Notes: a model not told the origin generated them from the letters alone. DNA of 64,000 bases from a virus (IMGVR_UViG_3300036715_001196:1-64000), one strand, 5' to 3'; shown: positions 36,732-58,612, counted from the first letter of the stretch. Program-made: numbers and translations.

Positions 36732-36971
36732 TTGCGATTGCCGATAATTATGAGCCTATTTGATGTAATCAGATATCCGATAAGTATGCCACCTACCGAG
36801 GCAGAAATACTTGCATTACCTAATAGCCTTTTTAAAAGATGGACAGAATCTTCCAAAGAATGGTCTGATAGCCCGACACAATCATTCGTAGCATATTGGT
36901 ACAGCGCAGTACGAAACGAGACGCAAATCCAAGACATTAAACTATTAAGACAAATGATTAAAGATTATTAA
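36732..36971 (+). CDS. SLFD-family small protein (isolated copy)
   Basis: MSLFDVIRYPISMPPTEAEILALP...LLRQMIKDY: same family as the tandem array at 55561-58612. Confidence 0.5.
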   Translation: MRLPIIMSLFDVIRYPISMPPTEAEILALPNSLFKRWTESSKEWSDSPTQSFVAYWYSAVRNETQIQDIKLLRQMIKDY

Positions 36972-37029
36972 TTTCCACGTCTTTAAATTTCCTATTGACT
37001 AATATTCCTGTTAGTAATATAATTAAGTC

Positions 37030-37575
37030 ATGAGATACTTAATTATATTACTTGCTCTAATTCCTACGTTAATGCACACAGAGACTGTGCCATTACAGCA
37101 ACCAATCAAAAAACAAATCCTAGTCAATACAAAAGAAGAAAAGTGTTTAGCAGTAATGATATACGGTGAAGCCAGGGGAGAACCTATTAAAGGTAAAATC
37201 GCAGTTGCATATACTGCCTTAAACAGGGCAGTAAAAAAGACTGTATGTAAAGTAGTATTAGCAAGGAGGCAGTATAGCATATTCGATAATAATCCGTCTC
37301 TTAGAGCTGCTGCATTAAGTTCTGACCTAGAACCACATAAAAAAGATAACCTAGTAGATATTAAAAGTTGGGAAGAATCTATAAAGGTTGCTCAATTAGT
37401 TATGCGCAAAGTGGTTGAAGACCCTACAATGGGCTCAACGAATTATCTGGCTCCGAAACTTATGAAAACAAGGGGTTATCGATACCCTAAGTGGTCAAAG
37501 GTTTATAAATTAATGGTCACTATTGAACATCATAAATTTTATAAACTCGTTGACAAGAAGGTAGCAAAGTTATAA
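37030..37575 (+). CDS. SleB-like cell-wall hydrolase (Hydrolase_2 family) with signal peptide
   Basis: CLAVMIYGEARGEPIKGKIAVAYTALNR matches the SleB/CwlJ core motif (A..IYGEARGE...A.V..NR). N-terminal signal peptide. Confidence 0.7.
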   Translation: MRYLIILLALIPTLMHTETVPLQQPIKKQILVNTKEEKCLAVMIYGEARGEPIKGKIAVAYTALNRAVKKTVCKVVLARRQYSIFDNNPSLRAAALSSDLEPHKKDNLVDIKSWEESIKVAQLVMRKVVEDPTMGSTNYLAPKLMKTRGYRYPKWSKVYKLMVTIEHHKFYKLVDKKVAKL

Positions 37576-37622
37576 AATTACAGTGTGACAAATTTTAAAC
37601 ACAACCAAAGAAAGGCAATACA

Positions 37623-37976
37623 ATGAACACAATTAAAACTCAATACATGCACTATCGCGCAACTTCTGCTGCTTTGGCAGTCCTATCTACACCACGCAAC
37701 CACAATGATGCACCAATGTATCGTGGTGCAACTATTGCGATTGCACCGACTAATGAAAATACCGTTGCGGTAACTGTTGCCTTTTGTGGCCAGAAAGATA
37801 TTTTCAGCAAGAAATTGGGTCGCACAATTGCGGAAGGTCGTATGCAGGCATATTTAAACGGTAACCGCAAACTGAAAACTCTAGTTCGTTTGGTTACTGT
37901 AACTGATATGAACAACCTGAAAGACGAAGTTGCCGTAGCAATTGCAGGCGATATGTCGGCGGTAGGTCTGGAATAA
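37623..37976 (+). CDS. hypothetical protein
   Basis: RBS AAAGGCAATACAATG. 117 aa. Confidence 0.4.
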   Translation: MNTIKTQYMHYRATSAALAVLSTPRNHNDAPMYRGATIAIAPTNENTVAVTVAFCGQKDIFSKKLGRTIAEGRMQAYLNGNRKLKTLVRLVTVTDMNNLKDEVAVAIAGDMSAVGLE

Positions 37977-38022
37977 CAACTAGCAGGTAATGATTGGGCG
38001 AATATTCGCCCAATCAACTTTT

Positions 38023-38214
38023 ATGAAAAAAATAAAAATCAAAGTAGGCGAACCAGTTCCTAGCCCGTGTGTTGATATATGTACAATCAACAATAAGAAC
38101 GGCATGTGTGACGGTTGTTATCGAACAATACACGAAATTACAGATTGGTCTGTAATGTCAGATAATGAAAAGATTATAGTTTTAGATCAATTAGAAGATA
38201 GGATGTTTAAATAA
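38023..38214 (+). CDS. DUF1289-type Fe-S/zinc-binding protein (YdhL-like)
   Basis: SPCVDICTINNKNGMCDGCYRTIHEITDWSVMSDNEK matches the DUF1289 pattern SPC.G.C.....G.C.GC.RT..EI..W..M. Confidence 0.55.
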   Translation: MKKIKIKVGEPVPSPCVDICTINNKNGMCDGCYRTIHEITDWSVMSDNEKIIVLDQLEDRMFK

Positions 38215-38694
38215 ATGTCTAATGCATGGGCTCACTTACCAAATTCTAAACATATTGATGCTATAATTGCATCAATTAAAGCACACCCAAAAGAATGGGG
38301 TGCGGTCTGGGAAGCGGCAGGGAATGCGGCAGGGAATGCGGCAAGGGTTGCGGCGCGGGATGCGGCATATTATACGGCAAGGGATGCGGCAAGTAGTGCG
38401 GCATATTATGTGGCAAGGGTTGCGGCGTGGGTTGCGGCAAGGGAAGCGGCGTGGGATGCGGCAAGGGAAGCGGCGTGGGATGCGGCAAGGGGCGCGGCAA
38501 GGGATGCAGCATATTATACGGCAAGGGATGCAATCATTGCCCTTATTGCATATGATGATTGCGCATATATGCTCGACTCAAATCCAGGTGAGCTTGAAAT
38601 CCTTGCTAAGTTCGGTGACGAAAGAGCAATACTTTTATTATCTGCATGTGATGCATTTGCAGCTATTAAGGAAAAAGAACAATGCAAAAATTGA
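38215..38694 (+). CDS. HEAT-like repeat protein, family A member 5
   Basis: MSNAWAHLPNSKHIDAIIASIKAHPKEW. Repeats. Conserved C-term. ATG 1 nt after the upstream stop. Confidence 0.8.
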   Translation: MSNAWAHLPNSKHIDAIIASIKAHPKEWGAVWEAAGNAAGNAARVAARDAAYYTARDAASSAAYYVARVAAWVAAREAAWDAAREAAWDAARGAARDAAYYTARDAIIALIAYDDCAYMLDSNPGELEILAKFGDERAILLLSACDAFAAIKEKEQCKN

Positions 38695-38885
38695 TGACAA
38701 AATTTGACTTTTCAATTAGTAACGACAAAGGGTGCTATATTACAGTAACAAGATTAATCGATAATGCTATTAAGGTTTTTTATTTGGTTGGTAGTCGTGA
38801 TAAAATTGTAATGACAGACTTCATGAATAATATTACAGATGAGCAAGCAGACGGCTATTTTCCAAAAGAAAGAAAAAAGAAATGA
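38682..38885 (+). CDS. hypothetical protein
   Basis: 67-aa ORF overlapping the family-A gene end. Confidence 0.35.
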   Translation: MQKLMTKFDFSISNDKGCYITVTRLIDNAIKVFYLVGSRDKIVMTDFMNNITDEQADGYFPKERKKK

Positions 38886-39265
38886 GTAATGAATGGGACG
38901 ATCTGCCAAATGCAAGATATATTGATGCTATATTAAAATGTTGTGCTGCATTTCCTGTTAAATGGAAAAACATGAAACAACATACAGAGTCTGATAGCAC
39001 ATTTAACAGGCTGCATGATGTTATAAGTAAGAACGATGATGTTAAATATAATCTTGCACTAAGTAGGATAACACACGGTACTCAAGGTGTGCCAATCTGG
39101 GACGTTAGTCTTGCACTTTTAATTTTTGATGATTCAGCGCATTTGTTGCATTCTCCAGTAGACGAAGTAGAAATGCTTGCTGCCTTAGGCGACGAACGTG
39201 CTATACTTATGATAGGAGCATGCAAAATATTAGATGCCACATGCCCTATTGACTTATATCTATAA
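38882..39265 (+). CDS. divergent family A member 6 (no AAWDAA repeats)
   Basis: MSNEWDDLPNARYIDAILKC... and C-term LLIFDDSAHLLHSPVDEVEMLAALGDERAILMIGACKILDA retain the family frame. Confidence 0.6.
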   Translation: MSNEWDDLPNARYIDAILKCCAAFPVKWKNMKQHTESDSTFNRLHDVISKNDDVKYNLALSRITHGTQGVPIWDVSLALLIFDDSAHLLHSPVDEVEMLAALGDERAILMIGACKILDATCPIDLYL

Positions 39266-39283
39266 CTAACATATAATACAAAT

Positions 39284-39727
39284 ATGGCTACTTTAACTAA
39301 TGAACAGAAAGAACAACGTGCGGCAACAAGAAAGCTCAATCGCGAAATTGCAAAAGCTGCATATGAAAAACAACTCGAAGAACAAGCAAAACAAGAAGAA
39401 GAGTTTCGTAAGTCAGTTCCTGCTAAACTAACTGAACTTAAGGAATTAGCGAAGACTCTTGGAGTAGCTACAGTTATAGATTTAACACCTACTGGCCCTG
39501 AGATTTCTTTTGAGTACGAAAGTACTGTAGAAGACATCTATATTAATGATACATTGACCTATGATTCAGACGAATACTGGATTAGACAGATGGAGTCAAA
39601 CTTAAATAATATCAATGTTAAGCGAGAAGCACTTGAGATAAGAAAGGCACTTGCTAGAGAAGCATGGAATAAATTGTCTAAGGAAGAGCAAGACGCAATA
39701 AAAGAATTTAGATGGTCAATTTTATAG
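39284..39727 (+). CDS. hypothetical coiled-coil protein
   Basis: 147-aa ORF. Confidence 0.45.
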   Translation: MATLTNEQKEQRAATRKLNREIAKAAYEKQLEEQAKQEEEFRKSVPAKLTELKELAKTLGVATVIDLTPTGPEISFEYESTVEDIYINDTLTYDSDEYWIRQMESNLNNINVKREALEIRKALAREAWNKLSKEEQDAIKEFRWSIL

Positions 39728-39988
39728 TACACAACTGATGATAGAAACTTAATTCTTGAAACGACAAGGCTAGGGGCCTGCTTGTGTTTACAGCAATTTT
39801 CGCCTTGTACGTATTGTGTTAAATTAAAAAGCGGGTTTGCCTGCCTAAGGAGATATATCCAAAGATCACTAACCTACCCCAATATAGAGAAATTAGTAGG
39901 GTTCGAAACCCAAGCCACTTTTGTTCTGACTATAAGGATAAAATGCAATAGATAGTAGTAATTGCGATTATACGCAATGTAGCATAAA

Positions 39989-40020
39989 AGAGCTCGCATA
40001 GTCAGCGAGCCTTTTTATTT
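39989..40020 (+). terminator. rho-independent terminator
   Basis: GCTCGC-ATAGTCA-GCGAGC followed by CTTTTTATTT. Confidence 0.7.
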
Positions 40021-40027
40021 GTGCCTA

Positions 40028-40056
40028 TTGACAATATTTTAAAATAAGTCTATAAT
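40028..40056 (+). promoter_or_regulatory. sigma70-type promoter (TTGACA-N17-TATAAT)
   Basis: TTGACAATATTTTAAAATAAGTCTATAAT then AAGGAGCATAATATG. Confidence 0.6.
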
Positions 40057-40081
40057 GTTATTAATTAATAAGGAGCATAAT

Positions 40082-40282
40082 ATGGCTGGTAAATTAATTT
40101 CGAACAAAACAACATACGAATTTTCATTAGCTGATATAAAAACACTTATTGCTGACGAATTAGGTGTTATTGCAGTAAAAGTTCATGTAGAATATGTCAT
40201 AGAAGAATGTGGTGGCGATCCGATGGACCGTTTTCCAGGTGTTGACACTGTAACTAAAATTCGTGTAATCGTAGATCAATGA
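40082..40282 (+). CDS. hypothetical protein
   Basis: ATG after AAGGAGCATAAT. 66 aa. Confidence 0.45.
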   Translation: MAGKLISNKTTYEFSLADIKTLIADELGVIAVKVHVEYVIEECGGDPMDRFPGVDTVTKIRVIVDQ

Positions 40283-40498
40283 TATGTACTCTTACAGAAA
40301 AGTCGTAACATCAAAAAAATGCTTGTGGTTTAGCATTAATACTGTCTTTTTCGAATTACTCTTTGAAGATACAGTAGTTAAGACATTTCGTAATTACGCC
40401 TTATCTGACATACAAAATCTAACCCATTTATTAAATGTAGCCAGGACATTAGGATATAGTACCGGCTACATTCGTGGCTCACAACAAAGAAGGAATCC

Positions 40499-40888
40499 AT
40501 GAAAACAAATATTATAACTCATACAGACGGCAAAGGTAAGTCAACTGAAGAAATTGCAACAGTTATTATCGGTCGACTTGCAATAGGGTTTTCTAGCCTA
40601 ATATACTATCCCGAAGATCCTTTTAACGGTGAACTACGTGCCTATTTCGACGGAAGTGGTTTCGGCGACGGTGCGTGGTGTGTAGAAGCATACGACCATG
40701 TCTGTGGTGATAGACTCTGGTTGAGAGAATTTAAACAAGGTCTTCTCGAACTCGGCCTTAGTATCAAAGCAGTTCAGAATATTAAATACAACGAACTAAG
40801 TAAACAAGGTAAGGACTATGTATCTTTAATAATTGGTCCTACATTTTATGCATCGTGGAAACGAGTTAATAACAAAAAGGGTCTATAA
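40499..40888 (+). CDS. hypothetical protein
   Basis: 129-aa ORF. Confidence 0.45.
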   Translation: MKTNIITHTDGKGKSTEEIATVIIGRLAIGFSSLIYYPEDPFNGELRAYFDGSGFGDGAWCVEAYDHVCGDRLWLREFKQGLLELGLSIKAVQNIKYNELSKQGKDYVSLIIGPTFYASWKRVNNKKGL

Positions 40889-41157
40889 TGAAAAAACTTA
40901 CATTAATGCTGTTGATAGCGTCTAGCTTAATGCTATCTGGTTGCAAACAAGAAAAAGTAATCAATGGCACAAAATATGAAGCATACGGATTGGCTAATGA
41001 AGATGCAAAGAAAGACCCAAATGTTGTCTACGAAATTAGTGCGGAATCCGTAATCGTTGCTATTATACTATCCGAGACAATTGTTGTACCAATTTATGTT
41101 CTAGGTTGGGATCTGTACAAACCGGTTAAACTTAAAGTACTACCAGCTAAAGGGTAA
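40888..41157 (+). CDS. lipoprotein
   Basis: MKKLTLMLLIASSLMLSGC: signal peptide with an LSGC lipobox. Confidence 0.5.
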   Translation: MKKLTLMLLIASSLMLSGCKQEKVINGTKYEAYGLANEDAKKDPNVVYEISAESVIVAIILSETIVVPIYVLGWDLYKPVKLKVLPAKG

Positions 41158-41201
41158 TCATAGGTATTCCTACACACTTTACCATTAAATGTCAGCAACC
41201 A

Positions 41202-41531
41202 TTGCCACAACATGCTAGAATACCAGTCATAAAGGCAATTCGGTATCTGACTGGGATTGGTTTACGTGAAGCTAAAGAAGCATCAGAAAGTGATAAGAAA
41301 ACCACATATGCAATATCCCCGTGCTATATATCAAACCATTTATCACCAATGACAGAAATATTATCAAATTTTGCTATCTTAAAACAAAACAATGTAGAAG
41401 TGTTCTGTGTTGCAGATTTGTTAGATAAAATGCGCAGTTTTGCAAAAGATGCATTAGATTTAGGTGAGGATGAATTAGGTAATGAAATACTACAACTAAT
41501 CCTAGCTGAAAAATTGCGAAGAGGTATTTGA
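41202..41531 (+). CDS. hypothetical protein with ribosomal L7/L12 C-terminal-domain-like segment
   Basis: ARIPVIKAIRYLTGIGLREAKEASE resembles the L7/L12 CTD core (K.AVIKAVR..TGLGLKEAKDLVE). TTG start in the ORF track, so uncertain. Confidence 0.3.
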   Translation: MPQHARIPVIKAIRYLTGIGLREAKEASESDKKTTYAISPCYISNHLSPMTEILSNFAILKQNNVEVFCVADLLDKMRSFAKDALDLGEDELGNEILQLILAEKLRRGI

Positions 41532-41542
41532 TATTTTTGTCG

Positions 41543-41571
41543 ATTGACAAAAATGTTTATCATTGTTATAA
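41543..41571 (+). promoter_or_regulatory. sigma70-type promoter (TTGACA-N17-TATAAT)
   Basis: TTGACAAAAATGTTTATCATTGTTATAAT then AGAGAGGCAAAAATG. Confidence 0.6.
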
Positions 41572-41596
41572 TCTTATATACATAAGAGAGGCAAAA

Positions 41597-41797
41597 ATGA
41601 GTCGCACTAAAGCTATAAATGATAAATGTCGTGACTGTATTTACGACCCAAAGTCCGTCGGTACCTGGAGAGAACAGGTGCAGGCGTGTCCTAGTGAAAA
41701 ATCGTGTGCCCTGTGGCCATATCGACCAGTTGCTATTGCAACAGTAAATGCTAACCGCAAACCCAGAGCCGAAAAAGACGAACAAGTAGATGAATGA
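41597..41797 (+). CDS. small Cys-rich (zinc-ribbon-like) protein
   Basis: CRDC...ACPSEKSC: four Cys in two pairs. 66 aa. Confidence 0.45.
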   Translation: MSRTKAINDKCRDCIYDPKSVGTWREQVQACPSEKSCALWPYRPVAIATVNANRKPRAEKDEQVDE

Positions 41798-42021
41798 CAT
41801 CAAGGCATCTAAGTAACACAATATTAGCTGAGAACCTAATGCATAAGATTAAAATTGGTAGTAAAGTAAAGATTTTACGCAAAGATATATTTCATTTACA
41901 GCACAGAGAGAACCGAAACGGTACTGTAACTCGCATAAATGGTGCATATGTTACTATTCGCCCAACCTGGGTGGTATGGGAAATTGAATTATTAATAAAT
42001 GAAATTGCATTTAGGAAATAA
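41794..42021 (+). CDS. hypothetical protein
   Basis: 75-aa ORF, ATGA-coupled. Confidence 0.35.
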   Translation: MTSRHLSNTILAENLMHKIKIGSKVKILRKDIFHLQHRENRNGTVTRINGAYVTIRPTWVVWEIELLINEIAFRK

Positions 42022-42022
42022 C

Positions 42023-42256
42023 ATGTCAATGTTAGGTAAACAGATATTTTTAAAAGGTATTTCTCAGAAAGGCAAGAACAGAATACGAGAACTCGGTGAT
42101 CGTTGGATAGTCCTTGCTGAAACCGATTATGTTTTATTTCAACCTAATGTTAAAGGCCCTTGGCTTTTCATTTCTCCGATCGGGTGTGACCAAAACCATA
42201 AAGGCTCGAGATGGATTAAATCATCCGGCGACACCGATTTTTCAATAACCGACTAG
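42023..42256 (+). CDS. hypothetical protein
   Basis: Internal ATG (MSMLGKQIFL) preferred over the ORF-track start. Confidence 0.35.
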   Translation: MSMLGKQIFLKGISQKGKNRIRELGDRWIVLAETDYVLFQPNVKGPWLFISPIGCDQNHKGSRWIKSSGDTDFSITD

Positions 42257-42351
42257 GGTGGTTGACTTCTAATACAAAGTACTTTACAATGTAAATAAGG
42301 TGGGAGGAATAATCCGTCCATCTTTTACATACACACTTACAGGAGCATACC

Positions 42352-42723
42352 ATGTCAAAAATTGAAAATACAGCAGTAACAGAAACTATATCTGTCGCAA
42401 AAGCACCAAGCAAAAAATCCTTAGCACAAGCAATCTTCGCTACAAAAGTTGCCGAATTTGCTCAAAAGTTGTACGGCTCAAACAAAGACTTCCGCAATGC
42501 TGTATTGACTACTATCGAAACTGATCTCAGCGTATCGCGTGCATCTGCTGCGACATTGTACAATAGCTTCAAGAAAGATGCTGAGCAAGCTGGCACAGTA
42601 AAATTGGGTCGCGATCCAAAAAAAGTTAAAGCACAATCAACCGGTGTTCGCGGTCGCCCAGTCGGCAGCGGCAAGAAAAAAGTTATTGAAACAACAGAAA
42701 CTGTTGCAGAAGCTACAGTTTAA
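42352..42723 (+). CDS. small basic protein, family C (FRxAV...AATxYN), AT-hook-like GRPVGSGKK tail
   Basis: FRNAVLTTIETDLSVSRASAATLYNSFKK shared with ORFs 51054 and 52391. RBS CAGGAGCATACCATG. Confidence 0.5.
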   Translation: MSKIENTAVTETISVAKAPSKKSLAQAIFATKVAEFAQKLYGSNKDFRNAVLTTIETDLSVSRASAATLYNSFKKDAEQAGTVKLGRDPKKVKAQSTGVRGRPVGSGKKKVIETTETVAEATV

Positions 42724-42744
42724 TCCAGCGCGTAATATGCGACA

Positions 42745-42776
42745 AAAGAAAGGGGTATATTAACCCCTTTCTTTTT
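42745..42776 (+). terminator. rho-independent terminator
   Basis: AAAGAAAGGGGTATATTAACCCCTTTCTTTTT. Confidence 0.7.
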
Positions 42777-42837
42777 GGCTCATTAAGCCTGTTGACGACT
42801 AGTCTATCTATTGCTATAATGTATGTAAGGAGTTGCT

Positions 42838-42981
42838 ATGATTGAAAATACGCCACAATATCGAATAGTTATAAAAACTGACTACACTGGAAAAATAGTT
42901 TCTACTGAAGTAATTAATATGCAAAAAGAAGATTTAACATTAGCAAGAGAAGCAATAAAGAAAATTATGGATATGAAATGA
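42838..42981 (+). CDS. very small hypothetical protein (47 aa)
   Basis: TTGACG-N17-TATAAT promoter and AAGGAGTTGCTATG RBS directly upstream. Below the ORF-track cutoff. Confidence 0.3.
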   Translation: MIENTPQYRIVIKTDYTGKIVSTEVINMQKEDLTLAREAIKKIMDMK

Positions 42982-43043
42982 GAAATGAATAGTAATTGCT
43001 AGTTATTTGTTAATTCTAAGTATATTATTAATAAGGAAAGAAA

Positions 43044-43487
43044 ATGTCTAATGCATGGGCTCACTTACCAAATGCGAAACACATTGATGCAATAATTGCA
43101 TCAGTTGAAGCACACCCAAAAGAATGGGGTGCGGGGCGGGATGCGGCGGGGGATGCAGCATATTATGCGGCAAGGTGTGCGGCGTGGGGTGCAGCCTGGG
43201 ATGCGGCAAGGGGTGCGGCAAGTAGTGCGGCAAGTAGTGCAGCATATAATGCGGCGCGGGTTGCGGCAGGGGGTACGGCGTGGGATGCAGCCTGTAGTGC
43301 GGCAAGTGGTGCGGCATGGGATGCAATACTTGCCCTTATTGCATATGATGATTGCGCATATATGCTCAACTCAAATCCAGGTGAGTTAGAAATACTTGCT
43401 AAATTCGGTAATGAAAAAGCAATTTTATTATTACCTGCATGTAATGCATTTGCAGCTATTAGGATACATACACCAGTTATTGCTTGA
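43044..43487 (+). CDS. HEAT-like repeat protein, family A member 7
   Basis: [28 protein letters not shown]. Repeats. Conserved C-term. Stop inside the next -35. Confidence 0.8.
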   Translation: MSNAWAHLPNAKHIDAIIASVEAHPKEWGAGRDAAGDAAYYAARCAAWGAAWDAARGAASSAASSAAYNAARVAAGGTAWDAACSAASGAAWDAILALIAYDDCAYMLNSNPGELEILAKFGNEKAILLLPACNAFAAIRIHTPVIA

Positions 43488-43511
43488 CAAATAATTCCGT
43501 TTGTCATATAA
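43483..43511 (+). promoter_or_regulatory. family-A cassette promoter (TTGACA-N17-TATAAT)
   Basis: TTGACAAATAATTCCGTTTGTCATATAAT + ACTACACATTAAACAAACAGGAGTACAAAATG. Confidence 0.65.
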
Positions 43512-43542
43512 TTACTACACATTAAACAAACAGGAGTACAAA

Positions 43543-44038: not shown

Positions 44039-44068
44039 TACTACATACAAACACCGCAGGAGTACAAA

Positions 44069-51668: not shown

Positions 51669-51702
51669 CAATACACAGCACAGCAATATCTCTGAAGAGG
51701 AG

Positions 51703-51894
51703 ATGGGTCAATTACATAGCTTGCATTTATCAATGAATGCTATTGCTGCGGTTCGTCGTAATATGCCTGTAGGCGATAGCCGCTTAGATTGTGCAGATTG
51801 TGGCGAATCTATACCCTTAGCACGTAGAATCGCTGCTAAGGGTTGTATAAGATGCATGACCTGCCAAACACTATATGAGGTTACCAATGCCTAA
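51703..51894 (+). CDS. TraR/DksA-family C4 zinc-finger protein
   Basis: CADCGESIPLARRIAAKGCIRCMTC = Cx2C-x17-Cx2C. RBS GAGGAGATG. Confidence 0.5.
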   Translation: MGQLHSLHLSMNAIAAVRRNMPVGDSRLDCADCGESIPLARRIAAKGCIRCMTCQTLYEVTNA

Positions 51895-52297
51895 TGCCTG
51901 GGATCACTTACCAAATGCTAAACATATTGACTTAGTATTACATATATTAAAACAATACCGAAAGTATTGGCGTACGAAAAATAAAGATATAAGCTCTACT
52001 TCACTAGATAAGGCATGGAAAATTACATACGATTGTATGACTATTAAAAACAGAATACCCGAATGGAATTACCTATACAATGCAACATATGGCACAGATA
52101 GCAGGGCATGGCAGGCGGATTGTAGGACAAGTGCTGCATGGCTTGCCATAATGGCACTTATTGTATATGATGATTGCGCATACATGCTCGATTCAGATCC
52201 ATGTGAACTTGAAATACTTGCTAAATTCGGTGATGAAAGAGCAATACTTTTATTACCTGCATGTAAGGCATTTGCAGCTATAAAGGAAAATGTATAA
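51887..52297 (+). CDS. divergent family A member 14 (no repeat core)
   Basis: [23 protein letters not shown]... and C-term [50 protein letters not shown]. Confidence 0.65.
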   Translation: MPNAWDHLPNAKHIDLVLHILKQYRKYWRTKNKDISSTSLDKAWKITYDCMTIKNRIPEWNYLYNATYGTDSRAWQADCRTSAAWLAIMALIVYDDCAYMLDSDPCELEILAKFGDERAILLLPACKAFAAIKENV

Positions 52298-52390
52298 GTT
52301 TACAGATAAGCCAGCAACCCAATAAGTCATTGACAAGTAGGCTTCATTACTGCATAATATATACATCGTAAACAAACAAAGGAGCAAAAA

Positions 52391-52876
52391 ATGAGCAGCA
52401 TGAAAGATCGATCTATGGAAATCTATCAACAATATATTGCACTAGCACCTGTCGATGGACGATTATTTCGCCGTAAGGTTCTTGATCAATTGATGGAAGA
52501 ATTCAAGTGCTCAGTTGCATCTGCTGCAACCTATTACAATAATTGCAAAAAATCGCTGCCGCCTGTGGAAGGGCTTGGACGAGTACCGGCGCCTAAAGGT
52601 CTTCGTAAACCTAATAGTAAAGGTAAGGTGATTGAAGATTTACAGGAAGACAATGATTGTTTCTCTGTCATTGAACTCAACGGAAATAATTCCGTTGGTC
52701 GATACCATTCATTTTTAATGCAGGGCGATGCAAGTGAATACTTTGATGAAAAGATTGCAGCATGGCCAAACAGTGTGTGGGTATTGATACGCGGCCTGGG
52801 GCCTAATCCAGGGGACGATTTCAAGCTCGAGCAAGGTGAAGAAGAAATAAAACGTTACTCCTTGGCAAAAGAATAG
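52391..52876 (+). CDS. small protein, family C (FRxKV...AATYYN)
   Basis: FRRKVLDQLMEEFKCSVASAATYYNNCKKS. RBS AAAGGAGCAAAAAATG. Confidence 0.5.
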   Translation: MSSMKDRSMEIYQQYIALAPVDGRLFRRKVLDQLMEEFKCSVASAATYYNNCKKSLPPVEGLGRVPAPKGLRKPNSKGKVIEDLQEDNDCFSVIELNGNNSVGRYHSFLMQGDASEYFDEKIAAWPNSVWVLIRGLGPNPGDDFKLEQGEEEIKRYSLAKE

Positions 52877-52885
52877 GAGAGGAGA

Positions 52886-53257
52886 GTGTCTAATGCGTGG
52901 GATCACTTACCAAATGCGAAACATATTGATGCTACAATTGCATCGGCTAAGGCACACCCAAAAGAATGGAGTGCGGCATATTATGCGGTAAGGAACGCGT
53001 CAAGTGATGCGGGGTGGGTTGCGGCAAGGTGTGCGGCGTGGGATGCGGCAGTGGGTGCGGCGCGGGATGCGGCAGTGGGTGCGACATATTATGCGGCGTG
53101 GGATGCGGTATCAGCTTTAGTGGCATATGATGATTGCGCATATATGCTCGACTCAGCCCCAAGTGAACTTGAAATACTTGCTAAATTCGGTGACGAGAGA
53201 GCAATACTTTTATTATCTGCATGTAAGGCATTTGCAGCTATTAAGGAAACTACTTGA
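52886..53257 (+). CDS. HEAT-like repeat protein, family A member 15
   Basis: GTG start after [38 protein letters not shown]. Short repeat core. Conserved C-term. Confidence 0.7.
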   Translation: MSNAWDHLPNAKHIDATIASAKAHPKEWSAAYYAVRNASSDAGWVAARCAAWDAAVGAARDAAVGATYYAAWDAVSALVAYDDCAYMLDSAPSELEILAKFGDERAILLLSACKAFAAIKETT

Positions 53258-53339
53258 CAGATTGTTATTTATTATATATAATAAAATACTCTGGTCAAGC
53301 AGACACCAGTTTAAGTCTGCTAATTTAAAAAGGAATATT

Positions 53340-53594
53340 ATGGAAAGCCGAGCATTTATACGCCAATCCTCCACGTTAGTAAGAAAAATTTATGAATCGC
53401 AAAATACAATCGGTACAGCCGAACAATTACGAATTCAGCGTGAAAACCTGCAAACAGAAATACGCCAATTGTTCGCAGGTTTACAAAACCCTACACTGCC
53501 ATCAGCATATCGCCTGCGTGACACAGCTATGCGATACGGTTTCGTAGTTGATGCAAAAATCCTACACCGACTTGCACAATTAGAAAGCGTGTAA
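53340..53594 (+). CDS. hypothetical protein
   Basis: ATG after AAAAAGGAATATT. 84 aa. Confidence 0.4.
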   Translation: MESRAFIRQSSTLVRKIYESQNTIGTAEQLRIQRENLQTEIRQLFAGLQNPTLPSAYRLRDTAMRYGFVVDAKILHRLAQLESV

Positions 53595-53595
53595 T

Positions 53596-53781
53596 ATGTT
53601 TTCGATAATCTTTCTTATTGTTTTTATGTATTTCAGTATTAAGATCTTTGACAAGATGTTTGACTGGATGATAGGCGTAATGGACAGACACCCGTCTATT
53701 CGTAACATATTAGGTATGTTTGTTGCGTATTCAGCCTACAAAGGTATAAAGCGATATTTCGAAGATCTTAAAAACAAATAA
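53596..53781 (+). CDS. small membrane protein
   Basis: 61 aa with N-terminal TM helix. Confidence 0.35.
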   Translation: MFSIIFLIVFMYFSIKIFDKMFDWMIGVMDRHPSIRNILGMFVAYSAYKGIKRYFEDLKNK

Positions 53782-53800
53782 AGTGATTACCTAGCAATTA

Positions 53801-53842
53801 AAAAAGCCCTACGTGCTATATGTTCGTAGGGCTTTTTATTTG
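53801..53842 (+). terminator. rho-independent terminator
   Basis: AAAAAGCCCTACG...CGTAGGGCTTTTTATTT. Confidence 0.7.
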
Positions 53843-53954
53843 TTGCTACAAGACATTATTACAATCGTAAACCTTAAACTTTCACATATGCATTGACACA
53901 TAAATTATCTTCCTATACAATAATTACATATTAAAAGAGTTTATAGGAAATATT

Positions 53955-54467
53955 ATGTACATAGTAAAACGTATAAAATCATTATGCAACAGCTTTGGTG
54001 ATAATAACATATATTATATCAATCAAGGCGGATGTTGTGTTTTTGCTAATTTACTCGTAAAAGCCTTAATGAAACATAACATTGAAGCCGGTGGCATTGT
54101 TCTTTCTTGGGAAGCTAAATATTTCAATGAAAATAATAACAGCTTTGATCAAATTCGAAATTCGTCTAGAAAAAATGATCCTACAGAATGGAATAGTAAC
54201 GGTGTTAGGTTTTGGCATGTGGCTGTTGAATTTAAACATAAAGGTAAAACGTATCGTGCAGATTCCGACGGCATCGAAGAAGTACGTATCAAGACTAAGA
54301 GCGAATTTAGAAATGCACCTGTGTACAATGGGTACCTAACACCCGAAGAATTGAATGATTTTTCATCTAACAAGCACAGGCATTGCTGGAATAGTATATT
54401 TGATCGCGATGATATTCCGAGGATACAGCGATTAGTCGAGCAGCACTTGTCGGTTGACCTTAACTAA
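53955..54467 (+). CDS. hypothetical protein
   Basis: 170-aa ORF. Upstream TTGACA...TACAAT promoter-like sequence. Confidence 0.45.
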   Translation: MYIVKRIKSLCNSFGDNNIYYINQGGCCVFANLLVKALMKHNIEAGGIVLSWEAKYFNENNNSFDQIRNSSRKNDPTEWNSNGVRFWHVAVEFKHKGKTYRADSDGIEEVRIKTKSEFRNAPVYNGYLTPEELNDFSSNKHRHCWNSIFDRDDIPRIQRLVEQHLSVDLN

Positions 54468-54667
54468 CATATGTATTAAAATTAATTACTTAAAGAGGAT
54501 TTATAACTGTTTCACTTGTTTGTATTCTACTTAACTTAATTTGTATTCCAGTTTGCCTCGATAAGTCTCGTTTAGCACGTATTGGTTTATTTTTTAATGT
54601 AATTGGAATATGTTTTAATACTTTTGCTATACTTGCAAATTTGCATTATATTTGAATTAAGGATAAT

Positions 54668-54970
54668 ATGTTTATCATTCTAGGTCTATTGTGGCAACTC
54701 GTGGTTCGTTCTTCTATTGTTGCATCTGCATTTGTAACTCAAGGATTGGTATTATCTAAATTATGGGATTGGTTTATTGTACCGTTAAATAAAAACATTC
54801 CCACACTAACAGTAGTTTCTGCAATAGGTGTTACCATTGTTATTGGCTATCTTACAAGTGGGCGCATTATTAGCCGTACTAACGACGAAGAGGACGACTT
54901 CTTTGATAGTGCGATTATGCACCCTTTAATAGTATTATTCGTAGGATGGTGTTTAAGGTTCTTTATGTAA
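54668..54970 (+). CDS. membrane protein
   Basis: 100 aa, several hydrophobic helices. Confidence 0.4.
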   Translation: MFIILGLLWQLVVRSSIVASAFVTQGLVLSKLWDWFIVPLNKNIPTLTVVSAIGVTIVIGYLTSGRIISRTNDEEDDFFDSAIMHPLIVLFVGWCLRFFM

Positions 54971-55045
54971 TTCAAATACTAGTTGACTTATATCCTAGAC
55001 TACAATATAATACATACATCGCAAACAAACATAGAAGGAACTATC

Positions 55046-55354
55046 ATGTATGTAGTCTACAATAAAGAAACAACACGTTATTTGAAAAATCACGTAGGTG
55101 TTAAATCTGATAAGACACATTTCGAAACCACAGGTGCTGCTAAGGCTGCATTGACGCGTGCTGTTAAACAAACCGCATTAAACCCACAGCCAATTAATGC
55201 TGATGATTTTGCAATTGCAGATTCATTAGATTTTCACAAAAATATCGAAAAACAAGTTCCTGTACAAAACTTAATGAGTGGCGGCACCGTTATGCAATCT
55301 GCGAACACTCCACGTTGCTGTGACGTCTCTTCCGAAGCATATTGGTCGATGTAG
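55046..55354 (+). CDS. hypothetical protein
   Basis: ATG after GAAGGAACTATC. TTGACT-N17-TATAAT upstream. Confidence 0.45.
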   Translation: MYVVYNKETTRYLKNHVGVKSDKTHFETTGAAKAALTRAVKQTALNPQPINADDFAIADSLDFHKNIEKQVPVQNLMSGGTVMQSANTPRCCDVSSEAYWSM

Positions 55355-55375
55355 TCCTAATAGAAAGGTAATATT

Positions 55376-55564
55376 ATGTCTTTACATTTATTTCTAATAT
55401 GTTGTATGGTAATATTACCTTTCTATGGTGCATTTCTCACTGTTGTGTTTTCTGTTGTAAAATTTTATAGACCGCACCTAAATAATGCTTTCTTTTTGAT
55501 TCCTGCAATATGTTTTATCCTAACATTAATTATACCATTATCGTGTCAATTTAAAGTATTATGA
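55376..55564 (+). CDS. small membrane protein
   Basis: 62 aa, two TM helices. Stop overlaps the first SLFD gene (ATGA). Confidence 0.35.
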   Translation: MSLHLFLICCMVILPFYGAFLTVVFSVVKFYRPHLNNAFFLIPAICFILTLIIPLSCQFKVL

Positions 55565-55839
55565 CTATTTTTGATACACTACGATATCCGATTAGCTGGC
55601 CGCCAACTGAGGCTGAGATTGCAAATATACCATATCCGCTGTTAGAAAAATGGGCAAGGTACACTCTTTGGAAAAGTGGTATGGATATATCCTCACATGA
55701 ATTTCCTACAGATATTATTTATAGTTTATGTAAATTTTATAAGTCTGCAAGCCTTGCTAGCGATAGTAACCTAGGTATCTGTCGTACCTCTATATACGAA
55801 GTCGAATTACTTAGAAAAATGATAAGAGATTTAGAATGA
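55561..55839 (+). CDS. SLFD-family small protein, tandem copy 1
   Basis: MTIFDTLRYPISWPPTEAEIANIP...LLRKMIRDLE. Confidence 0.5.
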   Translation: MTIFDTLRYPISWPPTEAEIANIPYPLLEKWARYTLWKSGMDISSHEFPTDIIYSLCKFYKSASLASDSNLGICRTSIYEVELLRKMIRDLE

Positions 55840-56132
55840 GCTTATTTGATGCGTTAAGATATGTAGTTAGCTATCCGCCACTTTCAGAAGAGTTATTAGT
55901 GCTGCCTCGAGATTTATTATCAAGATGGGCTAAAGAAACTAATTGGCAAATAGGCCCTGCACTTATTTCTACGTATTCTGAGACCGAGTATATTATTTTA
56001 ATTACAAATTTATGCAATTACTATGCCTCTTATAAGAATGAGGATAGCCAAAGTGACAAGCATAAAATAGCTCGACACAAAGAAGAAATTAGTATTCTTA
56101 GAAGATTAATTAAAGAATATGATAGTGATTAA
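55836..56132 (+). CDS. SLFD-family small protein, copy 2
   Basis: MSLFDALRYVVSYPPLSEELLVLP...ILRRLIKEYDSD. Confidence 0.5.
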   Translation: MSLFDALRYVVSYPPLSEELLVLPRDLLSRWAKETNWQIGPALISTYSETEYIILITNLCNYYASYKNEDSQSDKHKIARHKEEISILRRLIKEYDSD

Positions 56133-56205
56133 AAGTAGTCGATAACCAAACAAGCCTAATTTAAAGACTTACACAAAGCCCTACCTTTATAACAAGGAAT
56201 AACTT

Positions 56206-56376
56206 ATGATACCGCTGCTGCTGTTATATTATGTGTTGTTTAGTGTTTTGTTTGGCATAATAACATTATTTCTTTCTGTGATTAAACCAGGAATTGTAAA
56301 TGAATGTGTATATCAAATTGCAATTGTTTTGATATTATCAGTCCTTTTATTATTCTACATACTTATTATTAGGTAG
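56206..56376 (+). CDS. very small membrane protein (56 aa) inserted in the SLFD array
   Basis: ATG at 56206. Two hydrophobic helices. Ends 2 nt before the next SLFD start. Confidence 0.3.
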   Translation: MIPLLLLYYVLFSVLFGIITLFLSVIKPGIVNECVYQIAIVLILSVLLLFYILIIR

Positions 56377-56378
56377 AC

Positions 56379-56669
56379 ATGAGCCTATTTGATGTAATAA
56401 AATACCCGATTAGTACACCAGTAACTCTAGAGGAGTTGTATGCTATTCCAGAGCAGATTACGGTAGACTTATTAAACACTATATTAAAAATAGTATTTAA
56501 TACAGATAGACCAAAGAGGTGCTTCAGCAACCACACTGATTTATGTGAAGGTTTGCACTCGTGGTTTACCATACACGAAGGCAATGAATGGGAAGCCGCA
56601 GATGCTATGATACCAGAATTTTATATTTTACTTAGAAAAGCAATAAAGGATTACAATGAGCCTATTTGA
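56379..56669 (+). CDS. SLFD-family small protein, copy 3
   Basis: MSLFDVIKYPISTPVTLEELYAIP...LLRKAIKDYNEPI. Stop shares ATGAGCCTATTTGA with the next start. Confidence 0.55.
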   Translation: MSLFDVIKYPISTPVTLEELYAIPEQITVDLLNTILKIVFNTDRPKRCFSNHTDLCEGLHSWFTIHEGNEWEAADAMIPEFYILLRKAIKDYNEPI

Positions 56670-56895
56670 TGTGCTAAGATACCCGATTAGTGAACCACCA
56701 ACTAAGGAAGAACTTGAGGCACTACCTAACGATATATGGGATAAGTGGATAGCATATTCTCAGTGGCCAGAAAGTGCATCGAAGACACTAATAGTCGAAT
56801 GGTATGGGGGCATAGACTACATGAATTTACCGTCTGTTGAGAGGGAAATTATTAAATTAAAACAGATAATAAAGGATTACAATGGGCCTATTTGA
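56656..56895 (+). CDS. SLFD-family small protein, copy 4
   Basis: MSLFDVLRYPISEPPTKEELEALP...KQIIKDYNGPI. Confidence 0.55.
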   Translation: MSLFDVLRYPISEPPTKEELEALPNDIWDKWIAYSQWPESASKTLIVEWYGGIDYMNLPSVEREIIKLKQIIKDYNGPI

Positions 56896-57121
56896 TATGC
56901 TAAGATATCCGATAAGCGATAAGCCCACTAAAGAAGAAATAGAAGCAATTCCTGATGATATATTTAATAAATGGGTAGAAACGAGTTTTGTTTATCTGCG
57001 TAGTCGTGAAGAAGTTATTGTGTTTTTTAACAGCCACTGTAGTTTCATTAAATATATAGGTGCTCAGACCTGTATTGATGATTATCGTAAATTAATAAAG
57101 GAGTATGATGAACTTATTTGA
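56882..57121 (+). CDS. SLFD-family small protein, copy 5
   Basis: MGLFDMLRYPISDKPTKEEIEAIP...KLIKEYDELI. Confidence 0.55.
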   Translation: MGLFDMLRYPISDKPTKEEIEAIPDDIFNKWVETSFVYLRSREEVIVFFNSHCSFIKYIGAQTCIDDYRKLIKEYDELI

Positions 57122-57353
57122 TGTTCTTAAATACCCAATTAGTGTGCCTCCAACTATGGAAGAATTAGAAGCACTACCTGCTGATTTATTAATTAATTGG
57201 ATGCTAGCAGTAAATTTCGATGCTGACATGATTCGACTTAACAGTTCTGAACTTACTAATGCGGAATGGGCCTTTAGTGTTTACAATGGTGACCACGAGA
57301 GTGAAGACCTTATCATATTGGGACAAATGATAAAAGAATATGAGCCTATTTGA
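57108..57353 (+). CDS. SLFD-family small protein, copy 6
   Basis: MNLFDVLKYPISVPPTMEELEALP...GQMIKEYEPI. Confidence 0.55.
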   Translation: MNLFDVLKYPISVPPTMEELEALPADLLINWMLAVNFDADMIRLNSSELTNAEWAFSVYNGDHESEDLIILGQMIKEYEPI

Positions 57354-57597
57354 TGTTATTAAGTACCCAATAAGCGATATACCTACAGTAGAAGAATTAG
57401 AAGCCTTACCTAAAGATATATGGGATAAATGGATTGATGAATCATCGTGGGGAGGACCAGATTATAAAAACGGTAGATTAAAAATATTACTATGGTTTAA
57501 ACTTGTCGCATCAATTGTAGATCATAACATACCAGAATTGCAACAAGATGTGAGGTTATTAAGAAAGATAATAAAGGATTACAATGAGCCTATTTGA
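57340..57597 (+). CDS. SLFD-family small protein, copy 7
   Basis: MSLFDVIKYPISDIPTVEELEALP...LRKIIKDYNEPI. Confidence 0.55.
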   Translation: MSLFDVIKYPISDIPTVEELEALPKDIWDKWIDESSWGGPDYKNGRLKILLWFKLVASIVDHNIPELQQDVRLLRKIIKDYNEPI

Positions 57598-57848
57598 TGT
57601 GATTAGATATCCGATTAGTGACAGACCTACAGCAGAGGAGCTCGGGTCTCTACCGCACAACTTATTTGAGGAATGGCGAAATAAATCATTTTGGGGTTTA
57701 AAGTCCGGTCGCTTAAACAACACAACAACACAACAAGCATTGGTCAGTGGTACACAACTGCTGAACTAAACACCTGTATCCAGAACACCACATTAGCATT
57801 GATGTAAAACTACTAAGGCAACTGATTAAAGAATACCAACAGATATAG
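57584..57848 (+). pseudogene. SLFD-family copy 8, frameshifted
   Basis: N-terminal MSLFDVIRYPISDRPTAEELGSLP intact. The family C-terminus (…IDVKLLRQLIKEYQQI) reappears in a different frame at about 57790-57848. Confidence 0.5.
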
Positions 57849-57913
57849 ACAACGTGTATTAAGTATAGTATAATTAAGGCTTGTAATTAAAATTATTTTA
57901 AACATATAAACAT

Positions 57914-58162
57914 ATGAGTATATTTGATGTAATTAAGTATCCAATAAGTATTCCTCCGAAGCGTGAAGAACTCGAAGCACTCCCTGTTGATTTATTAGTA
58001 GAATGGATGTCAGCTGCTGGTTTCGCCGATCCCGACTATAGTGACCCTTCTTTATTAATATCTAGAGCATTAGCATATTATAACTGTTGGGTTAATTCAA
58101 AAAATACTATTCCTATAAATGGACCTATGTTATTAAGAAAAATGATACGAGACCTACCATGA
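57914..58162 (+). CDS. SLFD-family small protein, copy 9
   Basis: MSIFDVIKYPISIPPKREELEALP...LLRKMIRDLP. Confidence 0.55.
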   Translation: MSIFDVIKYPISIPPKREELEALPVDLLVEWMSAAGFADPDYSDPSLLISRALAYYNCWVNSKNTIPINGPMLLRKMIRDLP

Positions 58163-58383
58163 GTATCTTTGATGTAATTAAGTATCCAATAAGTGAACCA
58201 CCTACTAAGGAAGAGCTAGAAGCATTACCCGATGATTTATACAACTACTGGTGTGTGCGCGAATTCGGGTATTCCTATAGCAGAAATACTATCCATCGTT
58301 ATCTTTCTGGCTATAATCCTTCGAATGTTATTATGATAAAACAGTTAAGACAAATGATTGAGGATTACGATGAGCCTATTTGA
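58159..58383 (+). CDS. SLFD-family small protein, copy 10
   Basis: MSIFDVIKYPISEPPTKEELEALP...LRQMIEDYDEPI. Confidence 0.55.
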   Translation: MSIFDVIKYPISEPPTKEELEALPDDLYNYWCVREFGYSYSRNTIHRYLSGYNPSNVIMIKQLRQMIEDYDEPI

Positions 58384-58612
58384 TGTTATTAGGTATCCAA
58401 TTAGTGATCTTCCTACAATAAGTGAATTAGCTGCACTCCCTGAAGAAGTTTATAATATGCTACGCAAACACGATAATTATGTAAGTGTATTAAGTACATC
58501 AAGTACATCAAGTATCAAATATTTTCTTACTACACAATATGCTAGTAAACATATGCCTATCCACCAACTTAATACTCTAACAACCCTAAGAGAAGTTATA
58601 TACAATCTATAA
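58370..58612 (+). CDS. SLFD-family small protein, copy 11 (divergent C-term)
   Basis: MSLFDVIRYPISDLPTISELAALP... Confidence 0.5.
   Translation: MSLFDVIRYPISDLPTISELAALPEEVYNMLRKHDNYVSVLSTSSTSSIKYFLTTQYASKHMPIHQLNTLTTLREVIYNL

Follow-up and report, generated by a model that had tools for sequence, protein, structure and literature searches.

The inner-body paralogues of phiKZ and the multigene families of giant viruses consist, like the locus described here, of many diverged and clustered paralogues of one small protein in a large viral genome, and we know of no report of a strict head-to-tail register with overlapping junctions in either of them. In T4 the internal proteins are made late, are packaged and are cut by the prohead protease, and the capsid-targeting sequence of internal proteins comprises about 10 residues. 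As in the array studied here, the T-even internal proteins (IPI, IPII, IPIII and the polymorphic IP loci) are small and diverse, with a conserved N-terminal segment and plastic loci; at least one of them, IPI*, acts against restriction by the host (PMC3012670). Genomic accordions of counter-defence genes, such as those of T4/T6 (dmd-tifA; SegB-promoted amplification) and of poxviruses, are likewise arranged head-to-tail and formed and removed by short-homology recombination, and their link to host-defence pressure is established (PMC9391042; PMC13096335). In T4, tandem amplifications and deletions occur via microhomologies of 6–10 bp (PMC9391042). Finally, stop/start overlaps of the ATGA and TGATG types, with termination-reinitiation coupling, share nucleotides between consecutive genes of one strand and have the Shine-Dalgarno sequence within the upstream coding sequence, as was also found here; the usual overlaps are of 4, 1 or 8 nt, those longer than 8 nt are rare, and reinitiation is strongly distance dependent (PMC10666635).

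The window, that is, the whole stretch of viral DNA analysed, has 64,000 nt (IMGVR_UViG_3300036715_001196:1-64000). Searching its six frames with the family HMM identified 12 family copies, all on the + strand, the N-terminal halves of which gave E-values of 1e-17 to 1e-31. Eleven lie head-to-tail at positions 55561–58612 and the twelfth is isolated at 36750–36971 (73 aa, MSLFDVIRYPIS...LLRQMIKDY; HMM E-value 3.8e-26), confirming the eleven-copy tandem array with one stray copy that had been proposed in a previous reading of the sequence without database searches (the sequence-only reading). The start assigned to the isolated copy in that reading, 36732, was not sustained since it corresponds to an upstream TTG extension, the family start being the ATG at 36750. 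Each array unit has about 240 nt and encodes a protein of 70–98 residues. A repeat search of the window showed a 59-nt unit present in 11 copies in register, and the 17-mer AATGAGCCTATTTGATG appeared 10 times at up to 3 mismatches, versus 0.33 expected. The order of the 11 copies was identical in L004–L008, with 98.8–99.9% identity; as these are independent assemblies from five other metagenomes, the array is not an assembly artefact.

All the elements of the array region are on the + strand. A sigma70-consensus promoter-like site (54983–55011; TTGACT-N17-TATAAT, 11/12 matches) is followed by a 103-aa ORF (55046–55354) and by a 62-aa hydrophobic, 2-TM-like ORF (55376–55564) that has an ATGA overlap with copy 1. 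The 103-aa ORF, without Pfam or PHROG match, is a conserved neighbour, with ORFs of 50% amino acid identity close to the arrays in L015 and L019. Small TM ORFs like that of 62 aa are also upstream of the arrays in L009, L015, L016, L017, L020 and L022. Copy 1 (55561–55839; 92 aa, MTIFD...LLRKMIRDLE) overlaps copy 2 (55836–56132; 98 aa) by the 4 nt ATGA. After a spacer of 73 nt, the gap between copies 2 and 3 contains the 56-aa membrane ORF already noticed from the sequence, a hydrophobic ORF at 56206–56376 that has no Pfam match. Copies 3 (56379–56669; 96 aa), 4 (56656–56895; 79 aa), 5 (56882–57121; 79 aa, MGLFD), 6 (57108–57353; 81 aa, MNLFD) and 7 (57340–57597; 85 aa) each overlap the following one by 14 nt. 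For copy 6, an additional in-frame ATG is found at 57105. Copy 8 (57584–57848), recognised by the HMM, is a frameshifted pseudogene. The spacer between copies 8 and 9 harbours a second sigma70-consensus promoter-like site (57846–57874; TAGACA-N17-TATAAT, 11/12 matches), 40 nt before copy 9 (57914–58162; 82 aa, MSIFD...LLRKMIRDLP), which overlaps copy 10 (58159–58383; 74 aa) by ATGA (4 nt). Copy 10 overlaps by 14 nt the last one, copy 11 (58370–58612; 80 aa from the ATG at 58370). The 2-kb tandem-repeat region located 3' of the array was not conserved as a neighbour among relatives.

The frameshift that had been read from the sequence in copy 8 was also upheld, and this copy is in decay, with two frameshifts in the window sequence and disruption of this copy in all five related strains. 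Its N-terminal half remains in frame 0 up to a stop at 57767–57769, and the C-terminal remnant, ...VKLLRQLIKEYQQI and stop, is in a different frame. An AC-rich microsatellite (57715–57737, + strand) lies at the frameshift site and has 24 additional nt in strains L004 and L006, and the second lesion, a loss of 1 nt near 57771–57773, is present in the window and L005 only.

Six of the ten array junctions (copies 3/4, 4/5, 5/6, 6/7, 7/8 and 10/11) have the 14-nt overlap ATGAGCCTATTTGA, two (1/2 and 9/10) the 4-nt ATGA overlap, and two (2–3, with the 56-aa ORF, and 8–9) are gaps. This dual-frame junction recurs in distant relatives: among 72 family-to-family junctions from 13 phages, 49 were 14-nt overlaps, 15 were 4-nt overlaps and eight were gaps. 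In the overlap, the last four codons (NEPI) and stop of the upstream gene coincide with codons 1–5 of the downstream gene. Therefore, the proposal that the same nucleotides encode both conserved protein ends holds for the NEPI tail but not for the conserved LLRKMIKDY helix, which is upstream of the overlap and outside it. Read in either of the two other frames, the conserved M-S/T-L/I-F-D codons include a TGA (A-TGA and TT-TGA-T), so an upstream copy extends 4 or 14 nt into the following one before it stops. For this reason the dominant overlap here is of 14 nt, with up to 25 in a row, in contrast to the usual lengths mentioned above. A neighbouring unit placed in frame gives a two-domain fusion, and P0012 is one such in-frame fusion of two units. 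The 14-nt overlap was found only where Phe4 is encoded by TTT, whereas phages using TTC have ATGA overlaps. The possibility that TTT is specially kept at Phe4 for its TGA was rejected, as the third-position entropy (0.77) was similar to that of Tyr9 (0.63).

The NEPI tail is absent where no family gene is downstream, as in the isolated copy, which ends in ...KDY because no family gene follows it, in copy 2 (...EYDSD, with its own TAA) and in copy 11 (...REVIYNL). In addition, the tail changes (EPI, ESI, EPL, DNI, DDI) with the synonymous codons of the downstream MSLFD. Both observations mark this tail as a passive by-product.

At the conserved C-terminus, the K-D/E-Y codons double as the Shine-Dalgarno of the copy that follows. 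The values for internal copies (−4.1 and −4.9 kcal/mol) were like those of other window genes (−4.4), and for copies without a family gene directly before them the value was −2.35, near the random one (−2.0). Junction RNA was less structured than gene interiors. Translational coupling across the junctions, proposed in the sequence-only reading, is plausible; independent initiation is also possible, since each internal start has its own Shine-Dalgarno, of typical strength, and relatively little structure around it. Compared with the characterised reinitiation range (−8 to about +10 nt; PMC10666635), two of the ten junctions are at −4 and six are at −14, outside it. The predominance of the 14-nt overlap may stem from inheritance of the duplicated unit alone, without selection for coupling.

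The number of copies among related phages ranged from one to at least 27, and recombination inside the junction would explain this range. L018 and L019, about 94% identical at nucleotide level, have three and seven copies, respectively. Two indel breakpoints between them (GATGA and GATGACxATCTTTGATGTTAT) fall within the junction and the initial conserved codons, and one recombination product has a chimeric N-terminus. This comparison supports the gain and loss of whole units by recombination within the repeated junction, for which the sequence-only reading had considered it an ideal substrate. Accordions and the array are alike in that copy number differs between close relatives and breakpoints lie in short homologies. 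Nevertheless, accordions consist of recent, near-identical copies of arbitrary segments joined at chance microhomologies of 6–10 bp, whereas the array copies are old and individually diversified, and every unit carries the recombination site within its own conserved coding sequence. Paralogues inside one phage share only 30–55% protein identity, which points to an old family and not to a recent accordion; the junction blocks share 63–78% nucleotide identity. The nearest neighbour of a member was in the same phage 35 times and in another phage 58 times, which did not tell lineage-specific expansion apart from ancient paralogy.

Profile searches against Pfam-A, PHROGs v4, NCBIfam 20, PADLOC 2.0 and PDB sequences gave no family above threshold, and none of the weak matches was recurrent among 68 members, in agreement with the initial impression that the family resembled nothing recognised. 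No homologue was found in 50,697 GenBank phages by megablast of the array and tblastn of two members, nor was any family member detected on scanning the GTDB species genomes. Metagenomes, in turn, yielded about 710 family cluster representatives at 50% identity. The contigs that carry them belong to jumbo phages and reach about 369 kb; among cultured phages, those most closely related to them are PA5oct-like. The window itself comes from a jumbo phage that is uncultivated and a distant relative of PA5oct. An exact scan of IMG/VR with the 17-mer retrieved seven loci, of which L027 alone has the family, the rest being chance matches.

The family protein is soluble and mildly acidic (median pI 5.2), and for this reason a strongly acidic DNA mimic was discarded. 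Its highly conserved N-terminal arm, MSLFDVIKYPISxPPTxEELxALP, is predicted to be extended and to be followed by a short helix and three longer ones; conservation is also seen in the last helix (LLRKMIKDY), and the middle of the protein is hypervariable. The AF2 models of copies 3 and 7 (pLDDT 80 and 80.1) agreed in topology, although residues 1–10, the most conserved, had a pLDDT of about 50. The conserved N-terminal residues have free third-codon positions (1.5–1.9 bits), indicating constraint at protein level. This freedom and the weaker structure of junction RNA led us to reject a nucleic-acid element at the conserved 5' end. Strain SNPs within the family genes (17 nonsynonymous and 15 synonymous) and codon differences between L018/L019 orthologues (15 nonsynonymous and eight synonymous) are small numbers that gave no demonstration of positive selection, and the divergence of these orthologues (94–98% nucleotide identity) was not above that of the flanks.

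With respect to expression, 37 promoter sites matching sigma70 in at least 11 of 12 positions were found on the + strand and one on the − strand (1.8 expected), most of the 37 ending about 30–35 nt upstream of an ORF, and this strand bias recurs in relatives. There are no structural genes near the array. A motif common to two promoter-like sites, GTATAATTAAG, was not enriched. Early expression of the array is likely, given its location among these 37 near-consensus promoters, and in its favour PA5oct uses the RNA polymerase of its host with TTGAC/TATAATA promoters (PMC7318152). Nevertheless, sigma70-type promoters need not imply early expression if the phage uses the host polymerase throughout its cycle. 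The transcript covering the 103-aa ORF, the TM ORF and copies 1–8 likely begins at the 54983 site, and host sigma70 RNA polymerase would produce polycistronic early mRNA from 54983 and 57846.

From this context, the array probably represents a lineage-specific family of a PA5oct-distant jumbo phage, amplified in tandem and long diversified, whose products would be early host-interaction or counter-defence effectors. The shared N-terminal arm could be the handle for one partner, and the variable surface could be directed to differing targets. A more specific proposal, which we consider rather unlikely, is that the family plays in phages the part that contingency or variant-repertoire families play in pathogens, i.e., diversified binders or decoys with a common docking arm and a repertoire recombined at the junctions. 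Under it, the same arm would dock one phage or host machine while the target surface differs in each copy, and the off-frame stops would let in-register recombination expand, contract and shuffle the array without breaking the downstream genes.

It is unlikely that these are virion-packaged internal or ejection proteins with the arm as capsid-targeting signal and the variable body as injected inhibitor of host defence, even though the N-terminal 10–16 residues, the most conserved and predicted as extended with low confidence, are as expected for a docking peptide, and sizes of about 70–95 aa are similar. T-even internal proteins are indeed a diverse defence set, but they share only the capsid-targeting sequence and are otherwise unrelated (PMC3012670), whereas the homology of array members extends from end to end, with the conserved C-terminal helix as part of it, and these members form in-register overlapping copies. 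No conserved prohead-protease site (L/I-x-E, or S/A/G-x-E as in phiKZ-like phages) was found after the arm: Glu19 is the commonest residue at its position (51 of 83 copies), but P3 is variable or Thr, position 17 being variable and position 16 mostly Thr. Moreover, the array is in an early-looking block of sigma70 promoters without structural genes, and packaged proteins are normally late.

That the paralogues are subunits of a single hetero-oligomer, with overlaps coupling their translation and fixing the stoichiometry, seems quite improbable. Short same-strand overlaps are enriched in genes of heteromeric complexes (PMC10666635), and the closest structural neighbours, although weak, were helical bundles of the death fold (pyrin/CARD), which form filaments; no six-helix bundle with significant structural similarity to this fold was obtained. 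Lastly, a DNA or RNA element (recombination site or regulatory RNA) or neutral junk with incidental ORFs is very improbable, for although the junction is the longest exact repeat and one copy is decaying with a microsatellite, amino acids are kept while third-codon positions vary, ORFs are intact in 10 of the 11 array copies and in nearly all copies across the 13 phages, where they form one length class, the models of two members are confident and concordant, and junction RNA is less structured than gene interiors.

The junction is a design in which the coding sequence itself makes a tandem array robust to recombination, by means of off-frame stops in the conserved start codons and a Shine-Dalgarno in the conserved C-terminal codons. 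One relative devotes more than 6 kb to at least 27 diverged copies even though phage genomes are limited in size; this number, together with the difference of four copies between near-identical phages, indicates a rapidly adjustable repertoire, probably early, and early adjustable gene sets are the typical home of counter-defence and host-takeover functions. With about 710 clusters, unannotated and restricted to uncultivated jumbo phages, the family therefore offers a defined entry point into the 'dark' early genes of jumbo phages.

Eleven head-to-tail ORFs of 61–98 codons were found on the + strand of the region 55300-58900 by ORF listing and direct reading. Each of them starts with M-(S/T/G/N)-(L/I)-F-D...YPIS, and most end with ...L(L)RxxI(K/R)(D/E)Y.... 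Scanning the six frames of the window with a profile of the copies recovered exactly 12 of them, none on the minus strand, in agreement with the sequence-only reading, which had described a tandem array of paralogs (c1 to c11) plus one isolated member of this SLFD family. The isolated copy, identified by ORF reading and by the family profile, lies at 36750-36971 (+), with tRNA-Arg(TCT) and tRNA-Met(CAT) upstream (35028-35102 and 35947-36034) and a cell-wall hydrolase gene (PF07486, 37030-37575) after it, the latter having its own consensus promoter (36995-37023). Repeat analysis gave a 59-nt unit with 11 copies in register, and the 17-mer noticed at the junctions occurred 10 times at ≤3 mismatches (0.33 expected). 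The same array, with its copy order, was present in independent assemblies from five other JGI metagenomes (L004-L008, near-identical strains, 98.8–99.9% identity) and, therefore, an assembly artefact was ruled out.

The window has a G+C content of 32–42% and dense small genes on the + strand, and it encodes two tRNAs as well as several homing endonucleases. Among cultured phages, the PA5oct-like Pseudomonas jumbo phages are its closest relatives (56% identity for an ATPase and 44% for an endonuclease), and no DNA-level match was found in GenBank phages. As had been claimed, the family matches nothing known: searches against Pfam, PHROGs, NCBIfam, PADLOC and PDB sequences gave zero matches, and neither the 50,697 GenBank phage records nor the GTDB species genomes contained a member. 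Among 5.8 billion proteins, a word-indexed search yielded 64 members, and profile searching carried out exhaustively over 1.84 billion representatives gave 710 matches at E≤1e-3 (351 at E≤1e-10); among the 150 matches listed, all were single-domain proteins of ~72–96 residues. Members were located on contigs of 359, 365 and 369 kb and, therefore, the family is one of an uncultivated jumbo-phage clade. Across this clade, synteny around the arrays is loose, and window ORFs 52391, 53127, 53955, 54668 and 54983 have recurring homologues nearby. The feature was filed as a new, undescribed protein family in a large-virus tandem multigene array.

Several other genes accompany these arrays. A 100-aa membrane protein gene (phrog_2169, 54668-54970) is homologous to 6000-6302 of locus L009 and 4215-4514 of locus L019, and tiny hydrophobic ORFs lie just before the array (55376-55564) and inside it (56206-56376, 56 codons); in at least seven phages, the arrays have small TM ORFs ahead of them. 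A 109-aa ORF that matches the ribosomal protein L7/L12 C-terminal domain (41202-41531; PF00542, 27.6 bits against a cut-off of 25.9) has homologues in L001, L002, L019, L022 and L024, in each case upstream of the array.

At 6 of the 10 junctions of the window, consecutive genes overlap by 14 nt (ATG AGC CTA TTT GA), which are read as ..N-E-P-I-stop by the upstream gene and as M-S-L-F-D by the downstream one. Two further junctions (c1/c2 and c9/c10) are ATGA overlaps, and the remaining two are gaps, one holding the 56-codon hydrophobic ORF and the other being a 65-nt spacer after a pseudogene. The dual-frame junction proposed from the sequence also recurred in related genomes: in a census of 72 family-to-family junctions from 13 distinct phages, 49 had the 14-nt overlap, 15 the ATGA overlap and 8 a gap, with a median start-to-start period of 238 nt. 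The 14-nt overlap was found only when Phe4 of the downstream copy was encoded by TTT, which creates TT-TGA-T, while the 12 junctions with TTC, mainly from L015, L016 and L020, were of the ATGA (9) or gap (3) type. Therefore, either off-frame reading of the conserved first five codons runs into a TGA. An upstream copy that arrives in one of these frames terminates after 4 or 14 nt of the next copy; arrival in frame gives a fusion, of which P0012 (160 aa, two units) is one example.

The NEPI tail is passive. It is missing where no family gene comes next (the isolated copy, c2, c8 and c11), and its other readings (EPI, ESI, EPL, ELV, DNI and DDI) are set exactly by synonymous or S/T and L/I codon choice downstream. 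The proposal that both conserved protein ends are the same nucleotides thus stood for the overlapped tail and start but was overstated, since the C-terminal motif lies outside the overlap. Third-codon positions of P10, I7, L23 and P24 gave 1.7–1.9 bits, and conservation of the N-terminus acts at the protein level. We found no evidence of selection for the 14-nt overlap as such, because the TTT/TTC position was not constrained above the comparable Tyr9 codon. The simplest explanation for the predominance of this overlap is that it was inherited with the duplicated unit.

The C-terminal motif plays a further part: its K-D/E-Y codons (AAGGAT, AAGGAG) pair with the anti-Shine-Dalgarno sequence. 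Duplex energies were −4.1 and −4.9 kcal/mol for copies after a family gene, against −4.4 for other window genes, and −2.35 kcal/mol, near the random value of −2.0, for copies without a directly preceding family gene. Junction windows were also less structured than gene interiors (MFE −6.5 vs −8.8, p = 9e-5). These ordinary energies and the low structure indicate that each copy has a normal, open initiation site. The translational coupling proposed from the sequence may occur by termination-reinitiation at the junctions; in published data, few overlaps exceed 8 nt, and reinitiation drops steeply with distance (PMC10666635).

AlphaFold2 models of copy 7 and of the divergent copy 3, based on an alignment of 68 sequences, reached a pLDDT of 80 in both cases and agreed in a single topology. 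After the extended residues 1–16 come a short helix with the sequence EELEA, one with the conserved Trp, a variable helix and a conserved C-terminal helix. The N-terminal peptide MSLFDVIKYPISDPPT is conserved, and conservation within the family is highest in the first ten residues, with M1, F4 and Y9 invariant and D5, P10 and S12 conserved at >90%. Since this stretch had a pLDDT of only ~50 despite its conservation, the models suggest that it is a docking peptide and not a core element. Members are soluble and mildly acidic (median pI 5.2), and no significant structural neighbours were found in PDB or BFVD.

Array length differs widely between related phages: one copy in L021, two in L001, three in L003, L018 and L024, four in L016, five in L017 and L020, six in L022, seven in L013, L019 and L027, 8–9 in L015, 11 in the window and at least 27 in L009, where the array reaches the contig end. 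The junction had been proposed as a site of crossing-over, and comparison of L018 (3 copies) with L019 (7 copies), ~94% identical over >15 kb, bore this out. Both of their indels (230 and 653 nt) have start and end points inside the junction, at GATGA and at GATGACxATCTTTGATGTTAT, and copy 3 of L018 is a chimera that starts with MTIFDVIKC... where its orthologue has MSLFDVIKC.... In T4, microhomologies of 6–10 bp suffice for tandem amplification and deletion (PMC9391042), so the 14–30 nt of homology at the junctions are ample. Copy number was constant within the strain set of the window. In L004, the family genes carried 14 SNPs over 2.6 kb and the upstream genes 5 over 5.6 kb, a density ~6 times higher in the former, and the changes across all strains were 17 nonsynonymous and 15 synonymous, which is suggestive, although not proof, of relaxed or diversifying evolution. 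Copy 8 (57584-57848), already noted as frameshifted, is broken at an AC-rich microsatellite (57715-57737) that has 24 additional nt in L004 and L006; a further loss of 1 nt near 57772 is shared by the window and L005, and none of the window strains compared has an intact copy. We consider the genetic architecture and turnover proposed here highly probable.

In the segmental amplification of counter-defence loci in T4 and T6 (PMC9391042; PMC13096335), tandem copies are gained and lost by the same mechanism as in this array, but the amplified T4/T6 copies are recent and identical whereas those of the array are 30–55% identical. In the second of these papers, from 2026, a homing endonuclease encoded by a phage is reported to promote the tandem amplification of anti-defence loci (PMC13096335). 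Three large homing or HNH endonuclease genes of the window lie at 15677-17227 (−), 22377-23864 (+) and 23916-25097 (+) (phrog_3339, phrog_559 and phrog_1314, respectively). With overlapping ATGA gene pairs the array shares the principle of stop/start sharing, and differs in the 14-nt length and the serial repetition. A second tandem family of ~62–70 aa (MKYKLY...EEEAxxLKLKYPxLxLY), absent from the window, was observed in L013 (4216-8600, with 21 HMM hits), L001 (10661-13403), L022 and L024, and has its own serial 10-nt overlap, ATGAAGTATAA (..NEV* / MKYK). The SLFD copies of L003 are directly followed by yet another family of small tandem genes, the third (MDxxELExFxxLKYFP..., 1420-3120), likewise with overlapping junctions.

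Directly 3' of the array, ~2 kb (58612-60600) lack convincing ORFs and are full of tandem repeats: a 31-nt unit ×4.7 (59671-59815), related units of 74, 63 and 42 nt (59810-60287), 50 nt ×2.4 (60314-60431) and 48 nt ×2.1 (60477-60579). This region may serve as an origin, as iterons or in regulation, and it is not conserved beside the arrays of relatives. Further local duplication is seen at 60637-62778, where a phrog_8421-like ORF (60637-61047) is followed by two paralogous phrog_8421-like ORFs, MSYTKQNRKTIHSQLVAAKKHLW... (61480-61821 and 62027-62368), both of which have a partner ORF, the two partners also being related (61044-61424 and 62365-62778). Perfect consensus promoters lie ahead of 61480 and 62027, and another (62775-62803) ahead of ORF 62836. 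At the window edge, a 12-nt repeat, TGCAGCATGGGG ×8.6 (63828-63945), reads on the minus strand as an HP-rich repetitive ORF.

A scan for TTGACA-N16-18-TATAAT at ≥11/12 identified 37 near-perfect sigma70 sites on the + strand of the window, sixteen of them perfect, and one on the minus strand (about 1.8 expected); most + strand sites end 30–35 nt before an ORF. The same strand bias appeared in L019 (19 vs 0) and L017 (14 vs 0). As a whole, the + strand of positions 1-64000 resembles a host-polymerase (early-type) region. Putative array promoters were located at 54983-55011 (+), ahead of orf 55046 (103 aa), the 62-codon membrane ORF (55376-55564) and c1 onward, and at 57846-57874 (+), ahead of c9-c11, and the + strand of 54500-60000 showed no terminator-like site. 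PA5oct depends on the host RNA polymerase and has TTGAC/TATAATA promoters (PMC7318152). We infer that the array would be transcribed by unmodified host polymerase, i.e., with early-type expression. The nearest functional analogy is with the T-even internal proteins, diverse small defence inhibitors with a common N-terminal signal (PMC3012670), but identity with them fails on the full-length homology of the family, the lack of a protease motif and the early-type context. Such expression would favour a role in host interaction or counter-defence in the cytoplasm over that of a packaged late protein, a function that we propose tentatively, as one that these small proteins may well not have.
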